Positions 27,505-48,303 of a stretch of 64,000 bases of DNA are shown here, in pieces. Numbering within the stretch: the stretch's first letter is position 1; the number at the start of each line of letters is the position of its first letter. Under the pieces are notes generated by a model. That model was not told the origin of the DNA, ran no database searches, and was given only the letters and a program-made list of their open reading frames with translations. Both the position numbers and the translations under genes were made by a program. The DNA comes from Patescibacteria group bacterium (GTDB lineage: Bacteria; Patescibacteriota; Microgenomatia; UBA1406), in assembly GCA_041665145.1 (NCBI GenBank), contig JBAYJK010000001.1:99464-163463 (forward strand), read 5' to 3'.

Positions 27505-29235
27505 ATGAAGAGATTATTTCTTTCGGTATTCTTTATAGTAATCGCTTTCTCGATTCTCGTTACCATTTTACCACTTTTGAATTCCCAATATTTCAGCATG
27601 CATGACCGTCAGCACATCGTGAGACTTTTTTTACTTGATACGGCGGTAAAACAGGGGGAATGGTATCCGCGATGGGTGGATGGATTGGGTTTTGGTTTCG
27701 GCTATGCACTGTTCAACTTTTACCCCCCATTAATTTACTATGTTGCCGAAGCATTTCGCCTTGTGGGGTTCGGGTATATCTGGTCAGTGAAATTGATGAT
27801 TATTACCGGATTTCTTGCTTCTTTCGTCGGCATGTATATGTTGCTGAATAAGTTGGTGAAAGACAAACCGATTGCCTTATTAGGAGCCGAGCTTTATCTA
27901 CTGTCACAATATCACGCAGCACTTGTATATGTACGCGGCGCATTTGCGGAGTTTTTTGGTTACAATCTGGTTCCGTGGGTATTCTATGGCTTTTATCTTC
28001 TGGTTACAACAGGAAATATCTATTGGTTTGCAGTATCGTTTGCACTTCTTATACTTGCTCACCCGTTTGTAGCATTTCCATTCGTATTACTTTTTATTGT
28101 TTTTTATGTTGTTTACTCGATTTTCAATACAAAAGAGTTTATTGCAACAACCGCAAAGTTGATTGCGAGCAGTTTACTCGGGTTGGGATTGTCAGCATTT
28201 TTTTGGTTGCCGTCCATGGTTGAGCGTTCATTTACTTTGGTGAACACGGTTCTTACGAAACAGCTTGCGGACTATCGCGTACATTTCGTGTTTATTCGCC
28301 AATTATTTAACTCGGCCTGGGGGTATGGTGGGTCAATACCCGGTCCCGATGACGGTATGTCGTTTGAGATTGGGAAGTTACACATATTGTTGATTGGAAT
28401 GACCTTGATGAGCGTGACCTGGATACTCGTTAGAAAGAAACATGCGGTAAACAGAACCCACCACATTATCATGCCATTTATTTTTCTGATCGTTTTTTCC
28501 GCTTTTATGGTCACCGGAAAGTCTCAATTTATTTGGGATAGCATATCCTTTTTGTGGTATTTGCAGTTTCCGTGGCGTTTCCTGGTGTTCGTATCGTTCT
28601 TCAGTAGTGTAGTCGGTGTCATGTGGTTGTTGTTCATAAGAAAAAACCACCAACCGCTGTTACTACTTATAATATCGCTGTCTGCGTTACTCTTTTACGG
28701 CAGGTTGTTTAAGCCTGAGAAATTGATCAGCGGAAATGACGATGTATATGTGACTCCCCATGAAATTTCCTGGGAACAAAGTCATAGTTCGTATGAATTC
28801 ATGTATAAAGATGTCCAAACAGTTGTTAAAGGTAATTCCAGAAGTTTTGTTTTGACGGAGAAAGAATTGCCGAAGGCGCTGTTTGCTACCGGGAGTATCG
28901 ACGCGCGAGGTAAAACTCTCGGAGATTTATATGAACGTAAATCATTTTCAGTAAGTTCCCGGCAAGGTACGTCATTTACTTTGAACCGTTCTTACTTTCC
29001 CGGATGGAAGGCGTTTATTGATGGGAAACAAACAGAAATTACTCCGATGGGACCGACTCAGGTAATGAATATCCAAGTGCCGCAAGGAATGCATACCGTG
29101 GTATTCAAATTTACGGATACCCCAATACGTAGTGTGGGGTGGGTTGTCACAGCTTTTTCTGTATTACTGCTATTTCAACCCAAAAAGATATACAACATTG
29201 CCACTCGGTCGGGGAAACCGCTGAAGCAGTCGTAG
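27505..29235 (+). CDS. Polytopic membrane protein, YfhO/PTPS-related-like GT-C
   Basis: N-terminal motif MHDRQHIVRL...GEWYPRWVDGLGFGFGYALFNFYPPL followed by many TM helices and a C-terminal beta-rich domain. Confidence 0.45.
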   Translation: MKRLFLSVFFIVIAFSILVTILPLLNSQYFSMHDRQHIVRLFLLDTAVKQGEWYPRWVDGLGFGFGYALFNFYPPLIYYVAEAFRLVGFGYIWSVKLMIITGFLASFVGMYMLLNKLVKDKPIALLGAELYLLSQYHAALVYVRGAFAEFFGYNLVPWVFYGFYLLVTTGNIYWFAVSFALLILAHPFVAFPFVLLFIVFYVVYSIFNTKEFIATTAKLIASSLLGLGLSAFFWLPSMVERSFTLVNTVLTKQLADYRVHFVFIRQLFNSAWGYGGSIPGPDDGMSFEIGKLHILLIGMTLMSVTWILVRKKHAVNRTHHIIMPFIFLIVFSAFMVTGKSQFIWDSISFLWYLQFPWRFLVFVSFFSSVVGVMWLLFIRKNHQPLLLLIISLSALLFYGRLFKPEKLISGNDDVYVTPHEISWEQSHSSYEFMYKDVQTVVKGNSRSFVLTEKELPKALFATGSIDARGKTLGDLYERKSFSVSSRQGTSFTLNRSYFPGWKAFIDGKQTEITPMGPTQVMNIQVPQGMHTVVFKFTDTPIRSVGWVVTAFSVLLLFQPKKIYNIATRSGKPLKQS

Positions 29236-30777
29236 TGGCCATGTACTTGGAAACGCCGTCCGTTCACTGAACACCAGATATACTGTTTTGGTTTTCGATA
29301 GGTTCACCGCATATGTCAGATCTTCATCCTTCATCGGCCATCGTGGTTCATAACGGATGGGCAATCCCGTGTAGTCCGTATAAATATCCAATGAATAAGG
29401 GAGTAAACCAAACGTTCCTTCGGTGAAAACAACAATTTCTTCCCCGGTTTTTGCTTTGTTTACTAGAAAGTTTTTAATGTCACTCATTCCGTGACCGACC
29501 GAATTTCCTTCAATATATTGTCCCCGATCGACCGGTGGGAACGGAATGTTATTTGGGGAAAACAAAATAGAGTAATCAAAATATGCAACGGACAGGAAAT
29601 AAAGAACAATAAGAATTTTGCTGCCGGTTGATTTCAAGAGGTACACAAATCCGATAAGCAGCGGAACGGTAAGAAAGATGAGGTACCTTGGAAATACCAC
29701 GTTTCCGAAAAGCGAGATTGCGGCAAGCGGGACCAAAATTGCGATATATAAGTAAATAGCAAGATAAACAGGATTGAACACATTAATTTCTTTCTGTTCT
29801 TCGGTTTTGATTCTGAACAACCCCAGTATCTTTTTGAAATACAAAGTAATTCTTCCTCTTTGTGTCAACGCAATTTCCTCGTCCCTGACAAGCATGATAA
29901 TAAGTCCCGCAAGCCCCATGATCGGCAGAATGAATGCACTTTCAACGAAAGTGTATACGGGAATAGTGCGCAAATTGTGGAATAGTGGATCAAACGGGTT
30001 TTTAAGAAAATCTGCAAATGACTTAGTAAAAGCCAAATTCTTCTGTTCAATAAAGTGCATGAACGGAGAAAGTCGCTGAATGTTGTAAACAACGAAGGCA
30101 AGGGCTGCGCTTATGCCGAAAAGGAAGTAATAGTTGCAACATTTTTTGACATAGTCCTTTTCTTTCAGATAAAAGAGGAGTGGGGCAAATAACGGGAATA
30201 TAAAGAAAATACGCATTGTCGACTTACTTAATGTGCCGAGTCCCGCCACCAATCCGAATATAATTGCCACATCAAGGCGTCTGTATTTAATAAGTAATAA
30301 AGAGAACAGTAGTGTCCAGATAAAAAACCCGTTGACCGCAGCGTCCACCAGCGCCATGCGTTCATAAAACAGATAATATGGGTTCAGGATATAAATCAAA
30401 GTTCCGAGGTAGGCGTATTTTTTTCCGAAGAGGTAATACAGAAGAATGAAGACTCCGATTATTGCAAACAAACCACTCACCACTCCGAACAGTCTGCCGG
30501 CAAACAGCGGGTCCGAAAACATTTTAAGCAGCGGGATCGTGGCCCAAGTTTGCAGAGGCTGGCGTCCGTCAGTGAGTGAAACGAATCTCCATGTTGCATC
30601 TTTCCAGGCGAGTCGAGCCCAATGTATATAAATGGCTTCATCAGTAAATATCGTTAGTTTGGTTAGGTTCACGATTCGGGTAGACAGGAATGTCAACAGT
30701 AAAGATGCGATGACCAAAAGGTCTTTCTTGTTCCAGGCAGACTTAAGCTTTTTAATTATTTCAAAAATATCAATCAT
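29170..30777 (-). CDS. ArnT/PMT-like GT-C glycosyltransferase
   Basis: IFTDEAIYIHWA...SLTDGRQPLQTW, i.e. the DE motif and a KPPL-like loop. Confidence 0.6.
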   Translation of the reverse strand: MIDIFEIIKKLKSAWNKKDLLVIASLLLTFLSTRIVNLTKLTIFTDEAIYIHWARLAWKDATWRFVSLTDGRQPLQTWATIPLLKMFSDPLFAGRLFGVVSGLFAIIGVFILLYYLFGKKYAYLGTLIYILNPYYLFYERMALVDAAVNGFFIWTLLFSLLLIKYRRLDVAIIFGLVAGLGTLSKSTMRIFFIFPLFAPLLFYLKEKDYVKKCCNYYFLFGISAALAFVVYNIQRLSPFMHFIEQKNLAFTKSFADFLKNPFDPLFHNLRTIPVYTFVESAFILPIMGLAGLIIMLVRDEEIALTQRGRITLYFKKILGLFRIKTEEQKEINVFNPVYLAIYLYIAILVPLAAISLFGNVVFPRYLIFLTVPLLIGFVYLLKSTGSKILIVLYFLSVAYFDYSILFSPNNIPFPPVDRGQYIEGNSVGHGMSDIKNFLVNKAKTGEEIVVFTEGTFGLLPYSLDIYTDYTGLPIRYEPRWPMKDEDLTYAVNLSKTKTVYLVFSERTAFPSTWPLRLLQRFPRPSGNVVYLFGLK

Positions 30778-32251
30778 GTTTAAGTAAACTCATGTCTGAA
30801 TAATGACCGATTCTTGTGAACTTCTTTCCTTTCAGTAATTGTACATCATTATCGTAGATACTTGCACATTCAAATTTCGAAAAAGCTTGGAGAAATTCAC
30901 CGGTATAATAAAAGAACTCAAGCCTCCCTTGAAAATAGAATACCATACTCGGGTGGTCGCCCCACCAATCCGTAGTGGTAATGGTTAAACCAAGTTTTTT
31001 CAGCGTGTTGTACGTATTTCTCGTCGATGGAGAAACAAGTACGGCTAAACTTGAGCACTTATTGTGTGCATCTTTTGAAATAAGTATATGCGGATCATAA
31101 CCGGAATAGTATGTTGTGAAAAAAGCACTTTTCACGAAAGCGACGTAAATAATCGAAGCTGAAAGTATTAGAAAAAATGCTCCAAAAAGAATCCGTTTTT
31201 TTGCAAACACAAATAACGGGTACGCGGCAAAGAAAAAGAATTGAGGAACAACGGGATACAGATACCACGAAATTTTTGTTTTCGTCAGATTCAAGAAAAT
31301 GAACCATGGAACGAATGCCATGCCCAGAAAGTAAGTCTCATCGGATACCTTTTTTTTGAACCACTGAACGGTAAATAAAACAAATCCGATTATTGAAGGG
31401 AAAATAAATACACCTAGTTGCTCTCTGAGTAAGTCGATATAAAAGGTCTTTTGACCGAAATGAGATTCGATGGAGGCGGTAACCCGACGAAAGTGGCTTT
31501 CAATGATATGTGCGTGCCAAAATTTTTGTTTGTACAGAATGAGCATTACTACGTACCACAGAGTAAGCAATGCACCTTGCACGATGAGAATTTTTATTCT
31601 TCTCCTAAATTCCGGTAGGGCTATTTCTTTCTTGAATAACAAAAAGAATAAAAAAAGAGCGTAAATGCCCAGAGGATAGAATCCTAGTAACGATTTGCTT
31701 TGAACACTGAGAAACAGAAACAGTACTGAAACAACGGGGTTATGTATGAACACTAGGTATCCAACCCAACCGAGTAACAAGAATATATCGAGACTAACTA
31801 CCTGGGATCGTTGGAGGAAAATGGGCGAGTAGGCAGTTGCGATGAGGGTAAGCGTTGCTATAAAACTTTTTCTAGTCACTCGGTAATACAGTATGTACAG
31901 CAGAATGAAAATCACTGTAGTTGTCGCTAACACGAGTAATCGGGCGCTGATTTCGGGTTGAACAGGCAGACCAAGTGTGACGATCCCGTAGAAAAGTGAG
32001 GATAGAGGAGGTTTGTCGAACCAGATTTTTCCTTGCCACACAGGGGCGAGAAAAAAATTGTTTTGAACCATTTCTCTACCGACTTGGACATACAACGACT
32101 CATCCCAATCGAAAAAAGGCCTGACAGAGCTGATTAACTTGAATGCTGTTGTTACAAAGAAAAAAGTCAAAAACAGAATGATACTCCAATGCTCAAGAAA
32201 GTATTTTTTTATACGGTTCGTCAGTCGTATTTTTTGGTTATGTCGTTCCAT
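30770..32251 (-). CDS. ArnT/PMT-like GT-C glycosyltransferase (GT39/GT83)
   Basis: FDWDESLYVQVGREM...IWFDKPPL, a textbook DE...KPPL signature. Confidence 0.75.
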   Translation of the reverse strand: MERHNQKIRLTNRIKKYFLEHWSIILFLTFFFVTTAFKLISSVRPFFDWDESLYVQVGREMVQNNFFLAPVWQGKIWFDKPPLSSLFYGIVTLGLPVQPEISARLLVLATTTVIFILLYILYYRVTRKSFIATLTLIATAYSPIFLQRSQVVSLDIFLLLGWVGYLVFIHNPVVSVLFLFLSVQSKSLLGFYPLGIYALFLFFLLFKKEIALPEFRRRIKILIVQGALLTLWYVVMLILYKQKFWHAHIIESHFRRVTASIESHFGQKTFYIDLLREQLGVFIFPSIIGFVLFTVQWFKKKVSDETYFLGMAFVPWFIFLNLTKTKISWYLYPVVPQFFFFAAYPLFVFAKKRILFGAFFLILSASIIYVAFVKSAFFTTYYSGYDPHILISKDAHNKCSSLAVLVSPSTRNTYNTLKKLGLTITTTDWWGDHPSMVFYFQGRLEFFYYTGEFLQAFSKFECASIYDNDVQLLKGKKFTRIGHYSDMSLLKHD

Positions 32252-32967
32252 TTGATCACGATAATATCCCGGAGTGTTTCAAACGTATCTTTTATGAAAT
32301 TAACGTTTTTTGTCTCCACATGCCTCCATACAACCGGGATCTCTGTAATTTTACAGCGGAGTTTTTTTGCTATAAACAAAAATTCAAGGTCGAACCCGGC
32401 GCTTACCGAAGAACCTTTAATTTCTTTTTCCGTGCCGAAAACCCGCATTTTTTTGATTATTGTCAGTGCCTTTTCGCGATTGAATATCTTAAATCCGCAC
32501 TGGGTGTCTCGTATGCCATGTAATCCGATTACAATATTCCGAATAATCATAAATCCCCGTGCCATTATTTTTCTGGTAAGCGGTGCTCCTTCTCTTGTTG
32601 AGCTTCTGGATCCGATAACGATATCCGCTCCACGTTCAGCGGAAGCAATAAGCTTGTCTGCTTCTTCAATGGGAGTTGCGAGATCGATGTCAGAAAACAA
32701 CACGTGAGTACCTTTAGCTTGCTTTATGCCTTCCATTACGGTGAAGGCTTTTCCGGAGTGGACCTTTTGAACAAGCTTCAAAAGTGGGAGCTCCTTAAGA
32801 TAATCTTTTTTAATTACATCAATACTTTGATCGGTTGACCCGTCATCGACGATAAGAATTTCACATATTTCCGGGTGGTGTTTAGCATAGTGAACAACCC
32901 GATCAACAACTCCTTTTTGCAGATTCTTTATTTCATTGTAAATCGGAAGTATCAGCGAAACTTTCAT
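32221..32967 (-). CDS. Dpm1-like polyprenyl-phosphate mannose/glucose synthase (soluble GT2)
   Basis: SLILPIYNEIKNL, LIVDDGSTDQS, FSDIDLATPIEE; no TM segments. Confidence 0.75.
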   Translation of the reverse strand: MKVSLILPIYNEIKNLQKGVVDRVVHYAKHHPEICEILIVDDGSTDQSIDVIKKDYLKELPLLKLVQKVHSGKAFTVMEGIKQAKGTHVLFSDIDLATPIEEADKLIASAERGADIVIGSRSSTREGAPLTRKIMARGFMIIRNIVIGLHGIRDTQCGFKIFNREKALTIIKKMRVFGTEKEIKGSSVSAGFDLEFLFIAKKLRCKITEIPVVWRHVETKNVNFIKDTFETLRDIIVIKWNDITKKYD

Positions 32968-34445
32968 GGTGTATGAATAAGTTTATAAACCTTGATGTCA
33001 TTAATCTGCCATATTGTATCAATTTTTGATTTGCCGAACATAGTGATGTTCCATGAGGGGGAGTTGATGATTCTGCACGGTTCTTTTGCGCAGATAACAA
33101 ACATCTGCTCTGTAATCTCAACTTTCGTTCGATCTGCCGGTCGGAGACCTGCACGTTCGAGAAAGTATACAACCGTATCCTCTTCATATTCTATCGGCCA
33201 GCTGGCGAAATTAAAGGGTTTATTTTTTATTTTTGGAGCAATAAAGTGCGCGATTTTCTCTGCCCGTTCTACCTGTCTACTTCCTTCGGAAAAATATATT
33301 TTGAACTGCCTGAAGTTTGTGTTGGCATATAACCCCGCCACAATCAGAACAGAGAACAATATGAATCTCTTTTTAGTAATCGTCGATACGAGATATCCGA
33401 TTGTTGCATAGAAGGGAATATAAATCGGCGTAAAATAATGCGGGTAGCGCGGACTTTGAATGAGCGCGAACATCAGTAAAAAGCACACAATGCTGAGAAA
33501 GTTGATAGTAAAGAAAATATTTCTGCTCTTCTTGATGTACCATAACGAGCTTCCCAGAAATATGATTAACACAAGTACAGTCAACAAGTAAGGGAGAGGA
33601 ACAACGAATATATGACTGAAAAATGCGATGAGTGTTTCGCGTAAGCGGTCAATATAACTGCTGTGATTTGCAAGCGAACCTTGTTGGAACAAGCCCATGA
33701 AAGCCTTTGAATTAATGAACCCGTGTCTTATATCGAACCAAATGAGCGGGAAAAGAGCTGCAGCAAAACCGACCGTTGCAACTGCATAATTAAGAATTAT
33801 TTCACGTCGTTTTTTTACAAATACTAATTTTGTGAGTAAGACTGTGGCCAGTAATGGAGAAATCATCAGGCTAAGGTAGTGGAGTTGAACCGAAAAACCG
33901 TAGAGGAAAAAAATCGTGAAGACAATTATTTTAGAAGGTTTTTTCCACCATAATGCGGTGAGCCAAACAATCAAAAAGGAAAAAATAGGCAGAGGATTTG
34001 GATTCCATGAAAACCGTGAGAATTCGATATTGACTGCTGAAAATCCGACCATAAACAACATTACCAAGGCTGCTGTTCTATTTTCTTTTACAACAAATAC
34101 ATACGCAAGCAAATATCCGACGATAGAGTAGAACAAGACGCCGTAAGCAAGTCCGACCGGATTAAAATTCCATAATAATAGAAATGGTGCCACCAGATAG
34201 TAATAGAACGGGCCAAGAAATACTGTACCAATGGATGTGGTCGGTCCGATCGCCGGAAAATGTCGAAAAGTGACAATGTCTGCTATTACCCGTGCGTCCC
34301 GCCCTTGATCACCGAGAAACGTGACGTGTTGATCAAAGTTAATGATGCGAAAAAGCAGGGCAATTAACAGTAGTGCCATAGCAAGACGATTCTTTTTTAT
34401 AAAAAGAAGGAGCTTTGCTACAATAGTATTGATGGTTAAGCGCAT
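32964..34445 (-). CDS. Polytopic membrane protein, putative GT-C ('GDQGRD' paralog family)
   Basis: FLGDQGRDARVIADI...GPTTSIGTVFLGPFYYY aligns with the 6166 and 19300 proteins. The start is uncertain (M at 34445, 34379 or 34550) because of a divergent overlap with the next gene. Confidence 0.5.
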   Translation of the reverse strand: MRLTINTIVAKLLLFIKKNRLAMALLLIALLFRIINFDQHVTFLGDQGRDARVIADIVTFRHFPAIGPTTSIGTVFLGPFYYYLVAPFLLLWNFNPVGLAYGVLFYSIVGYLLAYVFVVKENRTAALVMLFMVGFSAVNIEFSRFSWNPNPLPIFSFLIVWLTALWWKKPSKIIVFTIFFLYGFSVQLHYLSLMISPLLATVLLTKLVFVKKRREIILNYAVATVGFAAALFPLIWFDIRHGFINSKAFMGLFQQGSLANHSSYIDRLRETLIAFFSHIFVVPLPYLLTVLVLIIFLGSSLWYIKKSRNIFFTINFLSIVCFLLMFALIQSPRYPHYFTPIYIPFYATIGYLVSTITKKRFILFSVLIVAGLYANTNFRQFKIYFSEGSRQVERAEKIAHFIAPKIKNKPFNFASWPIEYEEDTVVYFLERAGLRPADRTKVEITEQMFVICAKEPCRIINSPSWNITMFGKSKIDTIWQINDIKVYKLIHTP

Positions 34446-35571
34446 ACTTCCATATTGTATTATATCTGCAGTCGTTTTGCTGAGTACCTTTATACTATGG
34501 TTGCCGTTTCTTTTACGCGTCAGCGCGATAGGTTCCATACCTACACCCAATCTTTCGTTTCTTGATGTGTATAAACACTGGGACGGTGTGCTTTACGTAG
34601 TTGTTGCCAAGACATTCTATAATATTCAGAGTCCCTTATTGCAAGACAGTCTATTAGCAATTCCCCTCTCACCGCAATATTTTGCCGCACATTTACCCCT
34701 GTATCCGTTTCTGATATGGTTAGGTAGTGTTGTGATCGGCTACTTGAAAAGTATGGTTCTGTGGCCGGTTATATTTGCCTGTCTGTATGGCGGAGCTGTC
34801 TACAATTTCAGTAAAAAATTGAAGCTTACCGATCATCCGCTTATCTTGGCGATTGTGGCTTTGTTTGTTACTCCCAGATTCTTCATCGTCAGATCTGTCG
34901 GCGCACCGGAAACAATATTCTTATTTTTTGTTGTCATGTCACTGTATTTTTTTCTACAGGAAAAGTATTGGTATGCGGGCTTCATGGGAGCTTTGGCATT
35001 CTTAACGAAAAGCCCGGGGATTTTGCTTTTCATCGGATACTCAATGTACTTTGCTGAAGAGCTCATTAAAACAAGAAAAATAAAGCTATCTTGGCTGGGG
35101 ATTTCGCTCATTCCGTTGGCATTCGTTGGTTTATGTACGTTGTATGCGGTACAAATGAATGATTTTCTTGCCTATTTTCATTCCGGAGATAATATCCACC
35201 TGCTGTTTCCACCTTTTCAGGTTTTTAACAGCAAGGCCAATTGGGTGGGTTCAGCCCGATTGGAAGAAATTCTTTTCATTTTTGTCTTCTATATTCTGGC
35301 TCTCATTACCGTGTGGGGAAACAGAAGACTGCGACCGGTTTTCTATACAATGCTGGTTTTTTTCCTCGCAATCATCAGCGTACAGCATATAGATATTGCT
35401 CGGTACAGTTTGCCGCTCTTGCCTTTTGCTCTGGTTATTTTTGAGAAGTTTTTTACTTCAAGAAAATTTTTGATTGCGCTCGTGGTGTTGCTTCCGGCGG
35501 TGTATATGTATGCCTGGAATTTTATGCTGTACAACCAAGCACCGATCACTCTATGGGGTCCGCTTATGTAA
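34432..35571 (+). CDS. Polytopic membrane protein, PIG-V/GT-C-like mannosyltransferase candidate
   Basis: First-loop motif YKHWDGVLYVVVAKTFY and 9-10 TM helices. The start is taken at MVKR (34432) rather than the ORF-track 34342. Confidence 0.4.
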   Translation: MVKRILPYCIISAVVLLSTFILWLPFLLRVSAIGSIPTPNLSFLDVYKHWDGVLYVVVAKTFYNIQSPLLQDSLLAIPLSPQYFAAHLPLYPFLIWLGSVVIGYLKSMVLWPVIFACLYGGAVYNFSKKLKLTDHPLILAIVALFVTPRFFIVRSVGAPETIFLFFVVMSLYFFLQEKYWYAGFMGALAFLTKSPGILLFIGYSMYFAEELIKTRKIKLSWLGISLIPLAFVGLCTLYAVQMNDFLAYFHSGDNIHLLFPPFQVFNSKANWVGSARLEEILFIFVFYILALITVWGNRRLRPVFYTMLVFFLAIISVQHIDIARYSLPLLPFALVIFEKFFTSRKFLIALVVLLPAVYMYAWNFMLYNQAPITLWGPLM

Positions 35572-36696
35572 CTATTTCTTCTTCCAAATGATCTTGTTGT
35601 ACATGAAGTACGAATAGGGAATGATCAAAAAAGCGATGATACCGATTTTGTAGATAATCCATGTAGGAACTCCCAGAAGCACCGTATCGCCAAGAAGAAG
35701 CAAAGCAACATACATTCCGACCGCCTGAATCAGAATATTGCCGGATGATACGATGTTGAAAAGCAGAAGCTTCGGTACGAATGCCGTCAATCCACCGGTA
35801 ATCTGTTTATGTCTGAAGCTCCAAAAATTATTAAGGAAGAAGTTACAGATAATTGCAAATTCCGAACTTATACCGTTTGCCAGGGGCTTGTTGTCAGTTA
35901 TAAATTTGATGAGTACATATGCAATGCTAAAATCTATGCCGAAGCCGATGAAACCAACAATAACAAATTTAACAAAACCGGAGTTCTGTAAAAGATAACC
36001 GAAGATGTTTGTTATAAACTCGCGGGCATTGATTTTTGAAACTCCTTTTTCTCTGTCAACGAACTTCAGAGGAACTTCCTCGATGATGGCGTTTTTCTTG
36101 ATTGCTTTGTCGAGAAGTGCGATCTGGAAAATATATCCGTTATATTTCTCAAGATCGGTCAACATGTCTTTCACGACCCACGCCCGAATCGCGCGGTAAC
36201 CCGAACTCCAATCATGAACCTTGAGATTCATGAATCCGAACCGAATAAACAGATTGGCAGTTATCGAATAAATTTTTCGGTTCAAACCCCAGTTTGCCGG
36301 TATTCCGCCGCCTTTCATGTACCGTGATCCGATAACAAAATCTGCCCCTTCCTCAATTTTTTTTAGCATTACCGGAATGAGCAGCGGATCGTGTGAAAGA
36401 TCAGCATCCATTTCAAACAGGACAAACGGGTTGAGTTTTTCAAGCGCATTTCGGAAACCGTTTACATATGCTTTTCCGAGTCCTTGTTTCTTGCCGATGA
36501 TAAGATGAAGGTTCTTGGTTCCCCCCATAAGTTTCTTTACTATTTTTCCCGTCCCGTCAGGGGAGGAATCATCGACCACCATAATCTGTATATCCCAGTT
36601 ATGCACCGTTCGAATAATTTTATTGAGAGACTCCAGCATTTTTTCTATATTGCCGGCTTCGTTATAGGTCGGTAATACTACAACAGCTTTTTTCAT
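35572..36696 (-). CDS. Dpm1-like polyprenyl-phosphate glycosyltransferase fused to GtrA-like membrane domain
   Basis: VVLPTYNEAGNIEKM, MVVDDSSPDGT, EMDADLSHDP, then a C-terminal 4-TM GtrA-like region. Confidence 0.8.
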   Translation of the reverse strand: MKKAVVVLPTYNEAGNIEKMLESLNKIIRTVHNWDIQIMVVDDSSPDGTGKIVKKLMGGTKNLHLIIGKKQGLGKAYVNGFRNALEKLNPFVLFEMDADLSHDPLLIPVMLKKIEEGADFVIGSRYMKGGGIPANWGLNRKIYSITANLFIRFGFMNLKVHDWSSGYRAIRAWVVKDMLTDLEKYNGYIFQIALLDKAIKKNAIIEEVPLKFVDREKGVSKINAREFITNIFGYLLQNSGFVKFVIVGFIGFGIDFSIAYVLIKFITDNKPLANGISSEFAIICNFFLNNFWSFRHKQITGGLTAFVPKLLLFNIVSSGNILIQAVGMYVALLLLGDTVLLGVPTWIIYKIGIIAFLIIPYSYFMYNKIIWKKK

Positions 36697-37643
36697 AGTG
36701 AGAATCTGTTTTTGAAATAAGTAATAGTATACTGCAATCCCTGTTCAAGTGAAATAACAGGCTGCCATCCGAGAAGTTTATGAACTTTTTCCATATGTGG
36801 GTTTCTCTTCTTCGGGTCGTCCTGAGGAAGTTTTTTGAAAACTATTTCCGAATCCGATGCGGTAAGCTTTTTTATAAGCAGTGCAATTTCATGTATAGTA
36901 TGTTCCATAGGATTACCGAGGTTCACAACCTCTCCGGGAATGGGTTCTTGTCCTGCTGCGACAAGACCCAAAACGAGATCCTCAACATAACAGAAAGATC
37001 TGGTTTGGGAGCCGTCACCATAAATAGTTATCGGTCTGTCGGTGAGTGACTGGACAATAAAATTTGAAATAACACGACCATCCTCTTTTTCCATGTTCGG
37101 ACCGTATGTATTGAAAATACGGACCGTCCGAGTATCCACTCCATACTTGCTGTGGTAGACATAGCATAGAGTTTCTCCCAAGCGCTTTGACTCGTCATAA
37201 CAGGAACGGGGGCCGCGTGTATTTACATTTCCCCAATACGTTTCCTTTTGTGGATGTTCCAAAGGGTCGCCGTATATTTCTGAAGTTGAAGCGTATACGA
37301 GTCGGGCCTTTTTTTTATGGGCAAGCTCAAGCAAGAAGGATGTTCCCATAGAATTTGCTTTCAATGTTTCAAGGGGAAACCGTGCGTACTGTATTGGGGA
37401 GGCCGGCGAGGCGAGGTGGTAAACGAGATCGATCTCAATGTTCGAGAGAGCCTCAAAACTTTTGTGTGACGTGATGTCAGCATTGATGAACAAAAAGCTC
37501 TTGTTGTCTGAAAACTGTTTGATATTTTCCACGGAACTTGTGATGAGATTATCGATGACGGTTACAGAGTGTCCGGTATTCAGCAAGTGCTTGGTAAGGT
37601 TTGATCCTATAAATCCACAGCCACCCGCTATGAGAATATTCAT
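36693..37643 (-). CDS. uxs: UDP-glucuronate decarboxylase (UDP-xylose synthase)
   Basis: GGCGFIGSNL, YASTSEIYGDP, and the near-diagnostic QKETYWGNVNTRGPRSCYDESKR plus GDGSQTRSFCYV, which is a very close match to the UXS signature. Confidence 0.85.
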   Translation of the reverse strand: MNILIAGGCGFIGSNLTKHLLNTGHSVTVIDNLITSSVENIKQFSDNKSFLFINADITSHKSFEALSNIEIDLVYHLASPASPIQYARFPLETLKANSMGTSFLLELAHKKKARLVYASTSEIYGDPLEHPQKETYWGNVNTRGPRSCYDESKRLGETLCYVYHSKYGVDTRTVRIFNTYGPNMEKEDGRVISNFIVQSLTDRPITIYGDGSQTRSFCYVEDLVLGLVAAGQEPIPGEVVNLGNPMEHTIHEIALLIKKLTASDSEIVFKKLPQDDPKKRNPHMEKVHKLLGWQPVISLEQGLQYTITYFKNRFSL

Positions 37644-38965
37644 ATCTCTGAAATAACCGGCTTTCTGCCGATAGAATAATACATAAATCCCGCTTTGGCC
37701 ATTATCGCGGGCTCATAAATATTTCTTCCGTCAAACACGAGAGGAGTTTTCATGAGTTCTTTGACTTTTTTCAGATCCGCCTGCTTAAATTCGTTCCACT
37801 CGGTGAGAATGCACAATGCGTCTGCATTTTGCAATGCTTCATACGGATCTTCTGCGTAATTCAGAGAGTCGCCGAACGTTCTTCGGATATGTTTTGTAGC
37901 TTCAGGATCATATACTGACAATTGGTAGCCATGGTGTAGAAGTGCTTTTATAATCGATACGGAAGGGGCTTCGCGGATGTCATCGGTATTCGGTTTAAAA
38001 CTTAATCCCCAGATAGCAATGTTCTTTCCGGCGATATGTTCATGCACTTTATCTACAAACTGTTCACGTGCCTGTTTATTGATTTTTTCGACCGACTCCA
38101 AGAGCTCCACATCAAGCTTCAACCCTTTGCCGGAATGAGTAAGAGCCTTAACATCTTTCGGGAAACACGCCCCTCCGTAACCAATTCCAGCATACAAAAA
38201 CATGCGCCCTATTCGTTTGTCAAAACCCACCGCATCCAATACGGTTTCAACGTCAGCTCCGGTTTTTTCACAATAGAAAGATATGAGATTTGCAAACGAA
38301 ATCTTAGTAGCCAACATCGAATTTGAGGTATATTTAATTAACTCTGCGCTCGCAAGGTCGGTAACTACCCGCTTTCCGGGTAATGGCTTGTGGAGCTCGA
38401 GAATAAGGTTGATGGCTTTTTGTGAATGCGACCCGATAACTACGCGATCCGGGTTTAAAGTATCATACAGGCCTGTCCCTTCACGGAGAAATTCGGGACA
38501 TGAAGCAACTGCAAATTGCGCATCCTTCGGTTTGATGTCCGTAATAATTTCTTCAACCCGCTTGTTTGTTCCGACAGGAACGGTGCTTTTACAGGAAACG
38601 ACGGTAAAACCATTCTTGAGATTTTGTCCTATTTTCTGAGCAACATCAAAAACTGTGGAAAGATCAGCATCTCCGTTTGTTTTTGAAGGTGTTCCTACGG
38701 TTATAAACACAATTTCAGATTCCTGAATAGCGGGGTCGTAATCCGTCGTGAAAAACAAACGTTCTGCAGCAATATTCTTTTTCAGCATTTCCTGCAACCC
38801 GGGCTCAAAAATGATCGGATCTCCGTTTTTTAGGCGGTTTATCTTGTCTTGTGTATGTCCGACGACCCACACCTTGTTACCGAAGTCGGCGAAGATACAC
38901 GCCGTCACTAGTCCGACGTAACCGTGTCCAACGAATGTTATTGTCATAGGAGTATATGATACCAA
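37640..38965 (-). CDS. ugd: UDP-glucose 6-dehydrogenase
   Basis: N-terminal Rossmann GHGYVGL and the catalytic GGACFPKDV motif; 441 aa. Confidence 0.85.
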   Translation of the reverse strand: MVSYTPMTITFVGHGYVGLVTACIFADFGNKVWVVGHTQDKINRLKNGDPIIFEPGLQEMLKKNIAAERLFFTTDYDPAIQESEIVFITVGTPSKTNGDADLSTVFDVAQKIGQNLKNGFTVVSCKSTVPVGTNKRVEEIITDIKPKDAQFAVASCPEFLREGTGLYDTLNPDRVVIGSHSQKAINLILELHKPLPGKRVVTDLASAELIKYTSNSMLATKISFANLISFYCEKTGADVETVLDAVGFDKRIGRMFLYAGIGYGGACFPKDVKALTHSGKGLKLDVELLESVEKINKQAREQFVDKVHEHIAGKNIAIWGLSFKPNTDDIREAPSVSIIKALLHHGYQLSVYDPEATKHIRRTFGDSLNYAEDPYEALQNADALCILTEWNEFKQADLKKVKELMKTPLVFDGRNIYEPAIMAKAGFMYYSIGRKPVISEI

Positions 38966-38982: not shown

Positions 38983-39804
38983 TTAAATGGCTTTCAGGCC
39001 ATCTTCAAACGAATGCATCGGAATAAAGGCAATTTTATTGCTTACTATTTTACTCATTTTCGGGCGTAACGCTTTACCTGTAAAATACTCGTCATATGTT
39101 GTCTGAGTTATTGGTGAAGCATCCAACCCGTATTTCTGAGCTATCAGTTTTCCCGCTTCATACGGGGAAAGCGAACTGCTTCCGACGAGGTGGAAAAGGG
39201 AAGGTGAATAATGGTTACATAAGTATGCCAAACCATGCGCGATATCATCGATATACGTGGGGGTAAAAATGCTGTCGGTCACCATAGCGAGTGGAACTTT
39301 TTTGGTGAGCAACGCACGAATACGCTGCACAAAATCGGGTTTTCCGCCATATGGGGCGCGATACGGGTAGCTTATCCGTACTATCATTCCCTTGTTTTTC
39401 ACGATTAACTCTCCTTCATGTTTGGTTTGGCCGTAATAGCCGAGGGGATGCGGCGCGCTGTCTTCGTTATAAAACTGCTCTTTTCCGTCGAAAACAAAAT
39501 CGGTTGAGATGTAGATAAACGGTTTTGATTTTCTTTGTGTTTCAGTAAACAAGTTTCTAGTTCCCGTGACATTTATACCGTAGGCAAGTTCTTTATTGTT
39601 TTCCGCTTGATCAACGTTGGTGTAAGCAGCCAAATGAAGAAGGAGATCATATTCTGTATGTTCAAGTGCCTCGTGAACGGAATCGGGCTTTGTTATATCA
39701 CATAAAGCTTGTGTGAGTGGGATAAGCTCAAATTGTTTTCCAAGTATCTCGACAATACGCGAGCCAACAAGACCAGTAGAGCCGGTTATGACAACTCTCT
39801 TCAT
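38983..39804 (-). CDS. rmlD: dTDP-4-dehydrorhamnose reductase-like (RmlD family) 4-ketoreductase
   Basis: ITGSTGLVGS Rossmann motif and ISTDFVFDGK (RmlD STDYVFDG motif). The protein is short at 273 aa. Confidence 0.7.
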   Translation of the reverse strand: MKRVVITGSTGLVGSRIVEILGKQFELIPLTQALCDITKPDSVHEALEHTEYDLLLHLAAYTNVDQAENNKELAYGINVTGTRNLFTETQRKSKPFIYISTDFVFDGKEQFYNEDSAPHPLGYYGQTKHEGELIVKNKGMIVRISYPYRAPYGGKPDFVQRIRALLTKKVPLAMVTDSIFTPTYIDDIAHGLAYLCNHYSPSLFHLVGSSSLSPYEAGKLIAQKYGLDASPITQTTYDEYFTGKALRPKMSKIVSNKIAFIPMHSFEDGLKAI

Positions 39805-40818
39805 TTATGAATGATACTGCTTTTGGTAATATTGCTGATATTCACCGGATTTTATTTCCTTCCACCAATCAGTATTTTTCCCATACCACGCAATGGTTTT
39901 CTGTAGTGCTGTGTCAAAATCAAACTGAGGTTTCCATCCCAATTCACGGTTGATTTTTGACCAATCCATCGCATATCTCCGATCATGGCCGGGGCGGTCT
40001 TTTACGTAATCAATTATGTCTTCGGTTTTTTGCATGAATTTCAAAATTCGTTTGCTCACTTCAATATTCGGAATGTCTTCGGTCAATCCACCTATGAGAT
40101 ATGTTTCACCGAGGGCACCTTTTTTCAGAATCGCATCAATCGCACTGCAGTGATCCTCTACATATAACCAGTCTCGCACATATTGACCATCTCCGTAAAT
40201 GGGTATCCGTTTCCCCTCCAAAATATTTGTAATGGCAAGAGGTATCAGTTTCTCGGGAAACTGATACGGCCCGAAATTATTTGAGCAATTGGAGATTGTT
40301 ATCGGTAAACCGTACGTGGTAGCGTATGCTCGTACCAGATGATCCGATCCTGCTTTTGATGCGGAATAAGGGCTGTGGGGGTTATAGTTAGTTGTCTCGG
40401 AAAATTTATCTTTGGTTCCAAGTTCCAGTGCCCCGAAAACCTCATCTGTTGATATGTGATGAAAGCGTGCGACTTTATGCTCGAGTGCGGACTGTAAAAG
40501 CACAAATGTTCCTTCTACATTAGTTTTAATAAACGGAGAAGGATCCGAAATAGACCGGTCGACATGCGATTCTGCTGCAAAGTGGACGACAATATCAATT
40601 CCCTGCATAACCCGGTTAACAACTTGGGAATCACAAATATCTCCTTTAACAAACGAGTAACGAGGATCATTTTCGACCGAAGCCAAATTTTTCAAATTGC
40701 CTGCATAAGTTAGTGCGTCGAGATTAACAATTTCGTCTTGAGGATATTTTTGTAGCCAATACTGGATGAAATTGCTTCCGATAAATCCCGCACCGCCGGT
40801 AACAAGCAGCTTGCTCAT
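39805..40818 (-). CDS. rmlB: dTDP-glucose 4,6-dehydratase
   Basis: TGGAGFIGSN, HISTDEVFG, YSASKAGSDHLVRAY (catalytic YxxxK). Confidence 0.9.
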   Translation of the reverse strand: MSKLLVTGGAGFIGSNFIQYWLQKYPQDEIVNLDALTYAGNLKNLASVENDPRYSFVKGDICDSQVVNRVMQGIDIVVHFAAESHVDRSISDPSPFIKTNVEGTFVLLQSALEHKVARFHHISTDEVFGALELGTKDKFSETTNYNPHSPYSASKAGSDHLVRAYATTYGLPITISNCSNNFGPYQFPEKLIPLAITNILEGKRIPIYGDGQYVRDWLYVEDHCSAIDAILKKGALGETYLIGGLTEDIPNIEVSKRILKFMQKTEDIIDYVKDRPGHDRRYAMDWSKINRELGWKPQFDFDTALQKTIAWYGKNTDWWKEIKSGEYQQYYQKQYHS

Positions 40819-41576
40819 GAAAATTTGACGTATTCGAGGAACTTAGTTAACCCCGGCGCATTGGCTTTTTTTGCCCAGTACAGGTTTGCGGTTATGAGTG
40901 TCTCGAACGTTCCTGCATCCAACCAATATCCGTCCAACTCAGCAAAATGCAGTTGTTTCTTTTCTATATACAGATTATTGACGTCGGTTATTTCCATTTC
41001 CCCCCGACCTGACGGTTTACAATCCCTAATGACATCAAAAATATGGTTGTCGTACAGGTAAAGACCGGTGACGGCGAAGTCCGAAGGAGGGTCTTGCGGT
41101 TTCTCTATAATTTCAACAATTGTTTTCCCATCGTCGGAAAAACGGGGAACACCGAAGCGTTTCGGATCCGGTACCTTCTTAAGAAAAATGGTTGCCCCGC
41201 CCGTGAAATCCTTCACCGCCTTACTGATGTTCGCATCAGTCGTATTGTCCCCAAGAATAACCGCTATTGAGTCACCGTCAGCAAACTTCTCAGCAAGCGC
41301 TACCGCGTCTGCAATTCCGCCTTTGGGATTCTCCTGAAAAGCATATTCGACGTGTTTCAATCCGAATTCCTCGCCGTTTTTCAAAACATTCAAAAAATGC
41401 CCGGTGTGCGGTCCTGAAGTAACGATAAGTATTTCGTCGACACCTGCCTGAACCAGCGTCTGTATCGGATAATACACCATCGGTTTGTCATATACCGGCA
41501 ACAAATGTTTATTAGTAGCATACGTCAATGGGTATAGCCGGGTGGCAAGACCTCCTGCGCAAATTACACCTTTCAT
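40815..41576 (-). CDS. rmlA: Glucose-1-phosphate thymidylyltransferase
   Basis: MKGVICAGGLATRLYPLTYATNKHLLPV nucleotidyltransferase signature. The internal M at 41576 is used because the ORF-track N-terminal extension (to 41693) overlaps the upstream gene. Confidence 0.85.
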   Translation of the reverse strand: MKGVICAGGLATRLYPLTYATNKHLLPVYDKPMVYYPIQTLVQAGVDEILIVTSGPHTGHFLNVLKNGEEFGLKHVEYAFQENPKGGIADAVALAEKFADGDSIAVILGDNTTDANISKAVKDFTGGATIFLKKVPDPKRFGVPRFSDDGKTIVEIIEKPQDPPSDFAVTGLYLYDNHIFDVIRDCKPSGRGEMEITDVNNLYIEKKQLHFAELDGYWLDAGTFETLITANLYWAKKANAPGLTKFLEYVKFS

Positions 41577-41836
41577 AATAAAGGAAAGAAAATAACTTGT
41601 AATGTTACGAAACCGAGAATTGTTATCAATAGGTATTCTAGCACAACGCTGAAGGTTATTCTCTTGATTCGAACGTGGTGAAGAACCGCCCATATAAAAT
41701 AATATAGTGCAAACAAAGTCCCGACAATCAATCGCTGTTGTGGATCGTGGCGTACAGAAAGTAGTGCAACGCTCACTAATGCGTATACCAATAAAACAAG
41801 GTAGTCGACAGGATACTTTTTAATATCATTCATCAT
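41573..41836 (-). CDS. Small 2-3 TM membrane protein of unknown function
   Basis: 87 aa and hydrophobic; the stop abuts the rmlA start and the start overlaps the upstream stop, so it is operon-embedded. Confidence 0.4.
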   Translation of the reverse strand: MMNDIKKYPVDYLVLLVYALVSVALLSVRHDPQQRLIVGTLFALYYFIWAVLHHVRIKRITFSVVLEYLLITILGFVTLQVIFFPLL

Positions 41837-42720
41837 AGGATAAGTCCTGAACTCATAGTCAAGATGCCCAAAAGAAAGAAAGCGATGAATATGAAATGCG
41901 CAACGTGTTTTCCAGACAATCTGAATGCCCCCTGTTTTTCCATATAGTACAGGTCGATCGCGAGAACGAAGATAAATCCCATAAGAACTATAAACATAAT
42001 CTGTTTCTGTAATATCCCGATGTCAATGAGCGGTTTTTTGTAAACGGAGCCTGCAACTTGTTGTGTGGTAACAGATTTATTCTTGACAGTTTGTTTCGCG
42101 AGTACCGGTTTAGTCTCAGCGGATGGGTTTGTAGTATCCGATGTCATGAACGAAGGATCTTGTTTTCCGAATAACTGGACCACAAGGACGGTCGGTTGTC
42201 CGAGGAGAGTCCCTTCCTGAATAGAGAAACCTATTTCGGTATACTCAGGTTTAAGGATGTTCTCTCGGTGCTTCGGGGAATTCATCCAGGCGGTGACGAC
42301 CGCTTGACTGTCTGTAAAATCTTTAGCAAGGTTTTCTCCTGCATATAAATAATGATAATTTTCCTTTTCGAAAAAAAACCATGGGGAGGTGCCTGTCGGT
42401 GAAAAATGAGCCCAATAGTTTTCCTGAAACATATCAATGGCTTTGTCATTTGCAGCAAGGTTCAATTTTTGGTTCAAAGTCAATGGTTCCAAGCCATTTT
42501 TTGCCCGTTCTGCATTCGTATCGTTTAATAAAACATCAACAGAAATATTTGTGCTGACTCCTAAAATGTTATTGTTAAAGTTTTTGAAGGCAATCTTGAA
42601 TGTGAGATTCAGAAGTATAAGAACAGCAATCAAACCTGTCAGAAAATCATGGTGCAGATATTTTGCTTTGAAATCATTGCTTTCGTGGGGAACAAATAGA
42701 TGTTGTAAGAACCGGAACAT
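41833..42720 (-). CDS. CAP/SCP (PR-1-like, YkwD-like) domain protein with TM anchors
   Basis: CAP motifs in ANDKAIDMF...NYWAHFSP...HYLYAGENLA...VTAWMNSPKHRENIL...TEIGFSI, with N- and C-terminal hydrophobic segments. Confidence 0.65.
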   Translation of the reverse strand: MFRFLQHLFVPHESNDFKAKYLHHDFLTGLIAVLILLNLTFKIAFKNFNNNILGVSTNISVDVLLNDTNAERAKNGLEPLTLNQKLNLAANDKAIDMFQENYWAHFSPTGTSPWFFFEKENYHYLYAGENLAKDFTDSQAVVTAWMNSPKHRENILKPEYTEIGFSIQEGTLLGQPTVLVVQLFGKQDPSFMTSDTTNPSAETKPVLAKQTVKNKSVTTQQVAGSVYKKPLIDIGILQKQIMFIVLMGFIFVLAIDLYYMEKQGAFRLSGKHVAHFIFIAFFLLGILTMSSGLIL

Positions 42721-42740
42721 AGTAAAAAGTATAGCAGATT

Positions 42741-43952
42741 TTACAGCGACTGTTTAGTGTGCAGGTAGTGCTTCATGGTGAGCAGAGGCAGGGTGAGTGA
42801 CTGCAGCAATATCAGAAGATATATTATTAAAAAATACGAAAGTATATTTTTCAAATCACGGGTTTTGCCGAGGTTGCGATTTGTTGAAACACCGAGAATC
42901 TCTGATCGATCAATAGACAGGTAGTAAGTCTGTTCGTTTATAGTGGGAAATATCTGTAGGGTAGGGTGCGGACTGGGAAGTGTGGTAATTGATGAAACAG
43001 CAAGTGCCGATTCGCTTGTTGTCGCTTGATTAATACACATAGTGTTTACTAAACCATAACTCGGTTCAGTTATACACCAATTACTGTCATCATTGATATC
43101 CTGGTTACTGAAACTCTTTCCCTGCATGCTTGAGTTGTATTCAATAGTGGCAATAACGTTCTTGTTTTGATCTAAAATTCGAATACTGTCATAATCATTG
43201 TTAAACATACTGCTTACAAATTCGATAGTTTGAAATCCGCGAGAAGAGACGGTCAAGGAGAAGGATTTTGGTGCGCTTCCGCTGTCTTCCTGGTCGTCAG
43301 CATACCATGTAGATAAAACTGCTTCTATGGGACAAGAATTGTACAACTCAATCCACTCATGGTTGTCGGGTAGCGGATTAATCATGACTTCAGAGAGATG
43401 AATGCATCCGGTCAGATCGGGGACGGGAGTCGTAGTTGGAGTTTGAGTTGGAATACGTGTAGGCGTTGTTGTCGGTGTAGGTGTCGGAGTTACGACGCAT
43501 GATATGCCCAACGCATTTTGAAAACCAAAACTTGCCGATCCCGTGGCCCATAAACTTCCTCCGTCAGGTAACCTTAGCCAGGAAATATTTATACCCGGAC
43601 TTTTCAGATACGAATAGTTGTCTATCAGTCGGGAGCTTGATGTCGTTGGAAGATCGGTATTATCAAACAGACGGATAGTGTCTCCCGATGATTTATTTAA
43701 GTTAAGGTTTTCGTTGAAAACAACGCAAGAATTAGGATGGAGAAGCGTACCGTGTGGAACAGTGAAAAACGTTGTTCCTCCGGCGTCATCGATAAACCAA
43801 TTTGAAATATCAACTATGCTTGTTGAGTTATTCCACAGTTCTATTCTTTGCTCAGGTTCGACGGAAAACTCGTTAATAACAATTGAACTTTCACCCTGAG
43901 TTATATGAGGATTTAATGCTGCTAAGACGATCAAGATTATGATAAGCCACAC
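42741..43952 (-). CDS. Secreted cell-surface protein with two lamin-tail (LTD) domains, Thr/Pro linker and C-terminal TM anchor
   Basis: VINEFSVEPEQRIELWNNS...DISNW and HLSEVMINPLPDNHEWIELYNSC (LTD INE..P....E[WF]IEL[YW]N motif) appear twice. TPTPTPTTTPTRIPTQTPTTTP linker; C-terminal hydrophobic tail. Confidence 0.6.
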   Translation of the reverse strand: MWLIIILIVLAALNPHITQGESSIVINEFSVEPEQRIELWNNSTSIVDISNWFIDDAGGTTFFTVPHGTLLHPNSCVVFNENLNLNKSSGDTIRLFDNTDLPTTSSSRLIDNYSYLKSPGINISWLRLPDGGSLWATGSASFGFQNALGISCVVTPTPTPTTTPTRIPTQTPTTTPVPDLTGCIHLSEVMINPLPDNHEWIELYNSCPIEAVLSTWYADDQEDSGSAPKSFSLTVSSRGFQTIEFVSSMFNNDYDSIRILDQNKNVIATIEYNSSMQGKSFSNQDINDDSNWCITEPSYGLVNTMCINQATTSESALAVSSITTLPSPHPTLQIFPTINEQTYYLSIDRSEILGVSTNRNLGKTRDLKNILSYFLIIYLLILLQSLTLPLLTMKHYLHTKQSL

Positions 43953-47295: not shown

Positions 47296-48303
47296 TTATG
47301 AAAATTTTAGCAAATAAGCTTTAATAAACTCGTCAAGCTTTCCGCCGAGCACTTCATCGGGATTATTACTCTCGAAATCAGTCCGCAGATCCTTGATTAG
47401 TTTGTAGGGGTGAAGGACATAGGACCGTATTTGCAGTCCCCAGCTTGCCATTTTACTTGTTCTGAACTGGGCAGTTTCCTGTTTTCTTTTCTCTTCTTCA
47501 ATCTGCCATAGTTTTCCCCGTAGCATTTGTAATGCAAAGGTTCTGTTTTGTTGCTGATATCGCTCTTCCTGGCACGTGACAATTATACCCGTCGGTTTGT
47601 GGGTCAAGCGAACTGCGGTTGCAACCTTATTGACGTTTTGGCCGCCGTGCCCTCCGCTTCTGAAAAATTGCCATTCCAATTCGTCGTCCTTCACCACGAA
47701 TTCCTGTTCGGCAAGAATAGGAAAAACTTCCACGAGAGCAAACGAAGTCTGACGAAGCGCATTGGCGTTGAATGGCGATTGTCTCACTAACCGGTGCACT
47801 CCTGCCTCTGCTTTCATGTTGCCAAATGCAAAGTCCCCATAAACATTCATTACGACGGTTTTCAATCCTGCCTCTTCACCTTCTATCTGATCAACCATTT
47901 CAACTTTCCAGCCTTTATTTTCGAAATATTTGGTGTACATTCTGAAAAGCATGGCTGTCCAATCCATCGCCTCGGTTCCGCCTTGGCCGGCATGAATGGA
48001 GAAGATTACATTAGCATTATCGAATTTGCCGCTGAAAAGCAGCAATGTCTCATATTTTGCCAATTCTTTCTGTAGATTCTCGTAATCCTTATCCTCATAC
48101 AGAAGTTCCATGAGTTCGAAATCGTCAATCTGCTTTTGTAGATTGCTTTGCTCCTTCAACAGGTCTTTTGCGGCGTTAGGGTCTTTCCAGAGGTTTGGTT
48201 TGTTTACTTCGCTTTCGAGAATAAGCAACCGTTGCCGCTTGTTATCAATATCGAATTTATGTCTAAGCTCAAGATATTTTGTGGCTGGGTCTTGTTGGGT
48301 CAT
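47296..48303 (-). CDS. prfB: Peptide chain release factor 2 (no programmed frameshift evident)
   Basis: GGQ motif [11 protein letters not shown] and the RF2-specific SPF motif (RQSPFNAN). There is a single continuous ORF. Confidence 0.85.

Follow-up and report, generated by a model that had tools for sequence, protein, structure and literature searches.

A predicted UDP-xylose route in a surface-glycosylation locus of an uncultured Patescibacteria bacterium

The 64-kb stretch of contig JBAYJK010000001.1 analyzed here (hereafter the window), from a Patescibacteria group bacterium, contains two adjoining genes, ugd and uxs, which a preliminary description had read as a complete pathway to UDP-xylose within a glycosylation locus. 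This reading raises the question of whether the second gene encodes a UDP-xylose synthase (UXS) or a related decarboxylase of the ArnA type, and beyond that, whether such a pair is exceptional among bacteria or within this lineage, and which enzymes would use the sugar. The two genes are as follows.

37640 to 38965, minus strand: ugd, predicted UDP-glucose 6-dehydrogenase; 441 amino acids (aa) from a TTG start, with UDPG_MGDP_dh Pfam domains and a match to TIGR03026
36693 to 37643, minus strand: uxs, predicted UDP-glucuronate decarboxylase/UDP-xylose synthase; 316 aa, with similarity to human UXS1

Both open reading frames (ORFs) lie on the minus strand where they had been placed, and the reported 4-nt overlap is the ATGA at 37640-37643, which the ugd stop and the uxs start share. 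The UXS signature motif, KETYWGNVNTRGPRSCYDESKR, is likewise present letter for letter in the 316-aa ORF at 36693-37643, and domain E-values of 1e-50 or below exclude chance for the two ORFs.

The uxs product displays every testable defining feature of a UXS and lacks those of ArnA and of the Ralstonia 4-keto-pentose synthase, RsU4kpxs. It adopts the extended short-chain dehydrogenase/reductase (SDR) fold over its full length (Pfam Epimerase, E 2e-54), with the NAD-binding GxxGxxG motif appearing as GGCGFIG at residues 7-13, and the 316 residues hold SDR domains only, with no fused formyltransferase domain. Against solved structures it aligns over its full length with the catalytic domain of human UXS1 (hUXS1; PDB 4gll/2b69) at 349 bits (E 2e-103), with 54% identity across 305 aligned residues; the other solved classes score 143 bits (UDP-glucuronic acid (UDP-GlcA) 4-epimerases, 6zl6), approximately 107 bits (RmlB) and approximately 97 bits (ArnA). 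The active site of hUXS1 has been described as six residues, of which Thr118, Tyr147 and Lys151 form the SDR triad and S119, E120 and R277 are distinct to the UXS group, Ser and Thr replacing E120 and R277 in the UDP-GlcA epimerases (PMC3438964). All six are kept in the uxs product, in which T120, S121, E122, Y149, K153 and R280 correspond to hUXS1 T118, S119, E120, Y147, K151 and R277. Furthermore, the curated NCBIfam cut-offs are missed both for the ArnA equivalog NF005998 (110 bits against 777) and for the RsU4kpxs model NF008872 (108 bits against 294), and the earlier proposal of a UXS-type rather than ArnA-type enzyme is upheld. An identical public protein carries the annotation 'NAD-dependent epimerase/dehydratase family protein', a generic name that it probably bears because no UXS-specific model is found among its NCBIfam matches.

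The first gene of the pair can be treated more briefly. All three UDPG_MGDP_dh Pfam domains occur in the ugd product (E 6e-59, 1e-33 and 2e-36), as does the catalytic-Cys motif GGACFPKD, and the NCBIfam nucleotide-sugar dehydrogenase model TIGR03026 is passed at 439 bits (cut-off 189.8). Its best solved relatives in the PDB are bacterial UDP-glucose dehydrogenases, at 355-378 bits, as compared with 202 bits for GDP-mannose dehydrogenase and about 134 bits or less for the UDP-N-acetylmannosamine dehydrogenases. The TuaD and AglM equivalogs are missed (505 bits against 700 and 357 against 670, respectively), and the assignment is therefore made at the sub-family level; judged by these scores, the 441-aa protein is a UDP-glucose 6-dehydrogenase. 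Translation probably begins at the ATG at 38947 (residue 7) rather than at the TTG, since relatives are 431-432 aa in length and the Pfam N-terminal domain begins at residue 7.

Considered together, ugd and uxs are highly likely to constitute the standard pathway by which UDP-glucose is turned into UDP-xylose in two steps. Several considerations weigh against this conclusion. The identity of the released product as UDP-xylose is suggested by orthology and not by particular residues, and the UXS, ArnA and EvdS6 structures have given no reason for the release of a 4-keto-pentose by some members of the group (PMC10338323). NCBIfam holds no UXS equivalog, and hence there is no curated cut-off for the protein to pass. 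Last, our view covers 64 kb of a contig of 918,908 bp, and no source of the UDP-glucose (galU) is visible in it.

If the two-step route is correct, Ugd would oxidize UDP-glucose to UDP-GlcA with the use of two NAD+, and the uxs enzyme, with its tightly bound NAD+, would oxidize C4, decarboxylate the sugar and then re-reduce C4 to yield UDP-alpha-D-xylose. The intermediates would be UDP-4-keto-GlcA and subsequently a UDP-4-keto-pentose, with the cofactor alternating as bound NAD+/NADH. The UXS mechanism has been established for hUXS1 (PMC3438964), and orthology together with residue conservation suggests that it may be extended to the enzyme described here.

Rarity among bacteria is not supported, and the pair is not peculiar to this genome. 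UXS had been called uncommon in bacteria, yet a homologue search with the uxs product saturated: all 8000 scored candidates lay at E of 1e-30 or below, and even the cluster in 120th place (clustering at 90% identity) reached 388 bits to the uxs product, above human UXS1 (349). The named homologues include proteins from Pacebacteria, Roizmanbacteria and an FCB-group bacterium. Characterised bacterial glucuronate decarboxylases derive from Escherichia, Streptomyces, Ralstonia, Sinorhizobium, Bacteroides, Rhodothermus and Actinomadura (PMC10338323).

Related contigs whose UXS proteins are 55-62% identical to the uxs product display the same neighbourhood. Three of these contigs (L003, L005 and L007) share the order M23 peptidase, lamin-tail-domain protein, CAP protein, rmlA, rmlB, rmlD, ugd, uxs, GT2/GtrA and GT-C genes, where GT2/GtrA denotes the fused glycosyltransferase gene that follows uxs; a Roizmanbacteria contig (L009) reads rmlB-rmlD-ugd-uxs-GT2/GtrA, and a Pacebacteria contig (L008) has ugd-uxs with no called gene for approximately 1 kb after uxs, such that ugd and uxs are adjacent in all five. 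We then consider a scan of species representatives (one genome per species), in which an alignment of the GT2/GtrA protein served as the query and 80 loci were returned. A true UXS (46-59% identity, 282-374 bits) lies immediately upstream of GT2/GtrA in 17 of the 80; ugd directly precedes uxs in 14, usually with rmlB and/or rmlD ahead of it, and in three further loci (L025, L028 and L046) gmd/rmd are placed between ugd and uxs. Most of the loci with the uxs-GT2/GtrA block bear the labels Roizmanbacteria, Microgenomates or Levybacteria. The identity of the genes, the families to which they belong, their order and its conservation are matters of direct observation here, and because the same arrangement recurs across many Patescibacteria genomes, the ugd-uxs pair is a regular feature of the lineage and not an oddity. 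The suggestion of an envelope chemistry unusual for this lineage is thus not borne out.

Many of the species-representative metagenome-assembled genomes with this block are titled 'uncultured Gammaproteobacteria bacterium' (TPA; L010-L012, L019-L023 and others). These titles look like mislabels, because both gene content and protein similarity group the loci with Roizmanbacteria/Microgenomates.

Around the pair, the window contains the following features.

40815 to 41693, minus strand: rmlA-like glucose-1-phosphate thymidylyltransferase; Pfam NTP_transferase E 2e-53, from residue 41
39805 to 40818, minus strand: rmlB, dTDP-glucose 4,6-dehydratase; TIGR01181 at 492 bits against a cut-off of 365
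38983 to 39804, minus strand: rmlD-like dTDP-4-dehydrorhamnose reductase; Pfam RmlD_sub_bind E 3e-60, TIGR01214 at 188 bits, missing its cut-off of 224
35572 to 36696, minus strand: GT2 catalytic domain with a GtrA-like domain of four transmembrane segments, predicted DPMS-like polyprenyl-phosphate glycosyltransferase; Pfam Glycos_transf_2 and GtrA_DPMS_TM
27505 to 35571, no strand given: block of GT-C/PMT_2/YfhO-like membrane proteins with a short ArnC/DPMS-like GT2 (32221-32967); Pfam PMT_2/YfhO matches, several of them weak or absent

The genes rmlA, rmlB, rmlD, ugd, uxs and GT2/GtrA run in one direction with tiny gaps or overlaps between them, and the uxs stop and the GT2/GtrA start share the same ATGA type of overlap, at 36693-36696. 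The start of rmlA is probably M40, at 41576, as relatives are 251-253 aa in length and the NTP_transferase domain begins at residue 41. A scan for promoters and terminators between 34 and 43 kb returned no more sites than shuffled sequence and was uninformative on operon boundaries. The GC fraction at ugd/uxs is 0.43, which matches the 0.39-0.44 of the window, and nothing therefore points to a recently acquired foreign island. Although rmlA, rmlB and rmlD are present (window 38983-41693), neither the window nor the syntenic L003, L005 and L007 showed an rmlC (3,5-epimerase); the gene may be located elsewhere, or else a D-configured 6-deoxyhexose is made instead of L-rhamnose.

The rmlA-rmlB-rmlD-ugd-uxs run would supply a large cell-surface glycosylation locus (15004-41693) of approximately 27 kb, or roughly 3% of the contig of about 0.92 Mb. 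This locus includes six GT2 genes (the GT2/GtrA fusion among them), one GT1-family (GT4-type) gene, a Wzx-like flippase and at least seven GT-C, PMT_2 or YfhO-like membrane proteins; for the large membrane proteins at 30770-32251, 32964-34550, 19300-21042 and 22599-23702, no Pfam match was found. The membrane-protein block at 27505-35571 is syntenic in L003, L005 and L007, and its proteins are probable users of lipid-phosphate sugars. The glycosyltransferases of the locus may be expected to consume UDP-GlcA, UDP-xylose and a dTDP-6-deoxyhexose, and a surface glycan is a sensible place to expect xylose and glucuronate; what the pathway actually makes, what accepts the sugars and which transferase draws on UDP-xylose are matters of inference.

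Within the membrane-protein block, the mechanically called ORFs at 34342-35571 (plus strand) and 32964-34550 (minus strand) overlap by approximately 200 nt. On an identical Logan contig (L001) the gene calls are shorter, at 327 aa (corresponding to 34588-35571) and 524 aa (start 34538), and the overlap is gone. Directly upstream of the sugar genes, at 41833-43952, are a CAP-domain and a lamin-tail-domain protein, also syntenic in L003, L005 and L007, the latter with a Thr/Pro-rich linker (TPTPTPTTTPTRIPTQTPTTTPVP). Linkers of this composition are typical O-glycosylation targets, and the two proteins could for this reason be substrates of the locus.

The gene that follows uxs bears most directly on the fate of the sugar. 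The GT2/GtrA protein aligns over its full length with the type-III dolichyl-phosphate mannose synthase (DPMS) of Pyrococcus furiosus (PfDPMS, 5mlz) at 118 bits, its scores against ArnC structures are far weaker (approximately 40 bits), and the ArnC equivalog is missed (53 bits against a cut-off of 529); on these grounds it is very probably a polyprenyl-phosphate glycosyltransferase. Its DxD motif is MDAD, at residues 96-99, of which D97 and D99 are invariant in 14 orthologues. The polar pocket and gate of PfDPMS comprise N248, N277, R341 and F338 (PMC12992685); in a hand-read alignment to 5mlz the equivalents here are D255, N285, Ile and Ile, with the Arg position falling just past the aligned end.

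Given this assignment, one may ask whether GT2/GtrA itself takes UDP-xylose, yielding a polyprenyl-phosphate-xylose that, once flipped, would serve the neighbouring GT-C (PMT_2/YfhO-like) enzymes outside the membrane as part of a three-component system. The proposal draws on the full-length alignment with a polyprenyl-phosphate mannose synthase, on the overlap of the GT2/GtrA start with the uxs stop, and on the GT-C genes that come after it in the window. Furthermore, wherever a related locus has a true UXS, its gene sits just ahead of GT2/GtrA, L008 being the one exception; this holds also for the three loci in which gmd/rmd precede uxs. In L009, L013 and similar loci, no transferase homologue other than GT2/GtrA was seen beside uxs. 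We nevertheless consider it unlikely. The nearest solved relative of GT2/GtrA uses GDP-mannose, donor specificity is not readable from the sequence of such a protein, and full-text literature searches found no description of a lipid-phosphate-xylose donor.

The orthologues of GT2/GtrA argue in the same direction. In a neighbour-joining tree of 58 GT2/GtrA proteins, a sister clade has gmd, not uxs, immediately upstream of GT2/GtrA, with rmd before gmd and a UGD-type dehydrogenase still present in these loci. The gmd product is a GDP-mannose 4,6-dehydratase (430-453 bits against a cut-off of 415), and that of rmd a GDP-6-deoxy-D-lyxo-4-hexulose reductase (202 bits to 2pk3). Within the sister clade, L025, L028 and L046 read gmd-uxs-GT2/GtrA, while L038, the sister of L046, is without uxs; rmd and gmd stand between ugd and GT2/GtrA in L029, L031, L032, L034-L036, L038-L043 and L065 (e.g. 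L034:5047-6981). The sugar-supply block thus looks modular, and GT2/GtrA orthologues evidently work without an adjoining uxs, both in the clade with gmd directly upstream (clade B) and in L038. As such, the adjacency of uxs and GT2/GtrA can be inherited gene order within a sugar-supply block, and losses of uxs or of gmd/rmd from that block may suffice to explain it. The two extra SDR genes beside GT2/GtrA in distant relatives had been candidates for UDP-GlcA-modifying enzymes; they were ruled out as such, being Gmd and Rmd (GDP-D-rhamnose genes), and this weakens the xylose-specific reading of GT2/GtrA. Were that reading true, several of the neighbouring GT-C enzymes would be extracytoplasmic xylosyltransferases, and the lipid-linked xylose donor would be one not described in bacteria, as far as literature searches show.

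The same neighbours, superficially ArnC-like (GT2 proteins scoring 53 and 61 bits against NF007986) and ArnT-like (PMT_2-type GT-C), invite a second possibility, in which the uxs product would resemble ArnA or RsU4kpxs and deliver a UDP-4-keto-pentose for 4-amino-4-deoxy-arabinose (Ara4N). The catalytic residues common to UXS and ArnA are consistent with this. However, the uxs product scores 97 bits to ArnA against 349 to UXS, misses both curated cut-offs given above and has no formyltransferase domain, and GT2/GtrA scores well above its ArnC match (41 bits) when set against DPMS (118 bits). Partner genes were not found in the window or in related loci either. A Pfam scan covered approximately 50 of the 55 window ORFs of at least 150 aa (four inside longer opposite-strand ORFs and one at 47296-48303 were left out), and in these no DegT/ArnB aminotransferase, formyltransferase, deformylase or polysaccharide deacetylase was found, the sole aminotransferase being of class V (Aminotran_5, 452 bits; 1479-2708). 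The called genes around the orthologues on five other contigs were also without DegT/ArnB, formyltransferase or deformylase. The check for ArnA-type partners that the preliminary description had called for therefore came out in favor of a UXS, and the Ara4N interpretation, very improbable on the score gaps, the curated cut-offs and the absence of partner genes from the 64 kb covered and from the related loci, is largely refuted. Still less probable is another UDP-GlcA-acting SDR, namely a UDP-GlcA 4-epimerase (the second-best solved class, at 143 bits) or a UDP-apiose/xylose synthase (UDP-apiose synthases exist in bacteria, PMC5607165), which is rejected on a UXS score approximately 200 bits above that of the epimerases and on the retention of E122 and R280, where epimerases have Ser and Thr (PMC3438964), none of the 47 solved-structure matches at E of 1e-20 or below being named UDP-apiose/xylose synthase.

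The predicted UDP-xylose route is composed entirely of familiar parts. The pathway, its enzymes and the pairing of ugd with uxs are all known, and what is new is a lineage-specific instance and a better functional name, in that the generic 'epimerase/dehydratase family protein' can be refined to a predicted UDP-xylose synthase. Knowledge of the enzymes or of the pathway is not changed thereby, and only the sugar carried by the adjacent polyprenyl-phosphate transferase is possibly new. Literature searches that combined UDP-xylose with Patescibacteria gave no relevant result. The locus does permit the prediction that the surface glycans of Microgenomates-type Patescibacteria contain glucuronic acid, xylose and a 6-deoxyhexose, which could serve the design of lectin or antibody probes and the interpretation of host attachment.

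The closest parallels are the UXS-type decarboxylases themselves. The uxs product falls into the same length class as human UXS1 (2b69/4gll) and has the same GxxGxxG motif, T/Y/K triad and UXS-specific S/E/R, and unlike the eukaryotic UXS1 it has no N-terminal membrane anchor. Characterised bacterial members include Sinorhizobium meliloti Uxs1, Bacteroides fragilis Uxs1/2 and Rhodothermus marinus UXS (PMC10338323, PMC5607165); in contrast to these, the host here is an uncultured Patescibacteria known as a metagenome-assembled genome, and the function is a predicted one. The adjoining ugd recalls the two-enzyme UGD and UXS route of Rhodothermus, in so far as it is cited in PMC10338323. With the ArnA C-terminal decarboxylase and RsU4kpxs the protein shares the SDR sub-class and the first two steps (C4 oxidation and decarboxylation of UDP-GlcA), and it differs from them in its low similarity (about 97-110 bits), in the missed cut-offs and in having neither a formyltransferase domain nor an aminotransferase partner. 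The gene after uxs is like PfDPMS (5mlz) in joining a GT2 catalytic domain and a GtrA-like transmembrane domain in one chain, and may differ from it in the polar-pocket and gate residues, which are only partly kept in the hand-read alignment. The GT-C (PMT_2 and YfhO-like) genes that come after GT2/GtrA resemble the arrangement of the lipid-phosphate-sugar systems, among them the GtrB/GtrA/Gtr-type, CsbB/GtcA/YfhO, Ppm1/Pmt and ArnC/ArnEF/ArnT systems, and the locus departs from such three-component systems in its unusually many GT-C paralogues.

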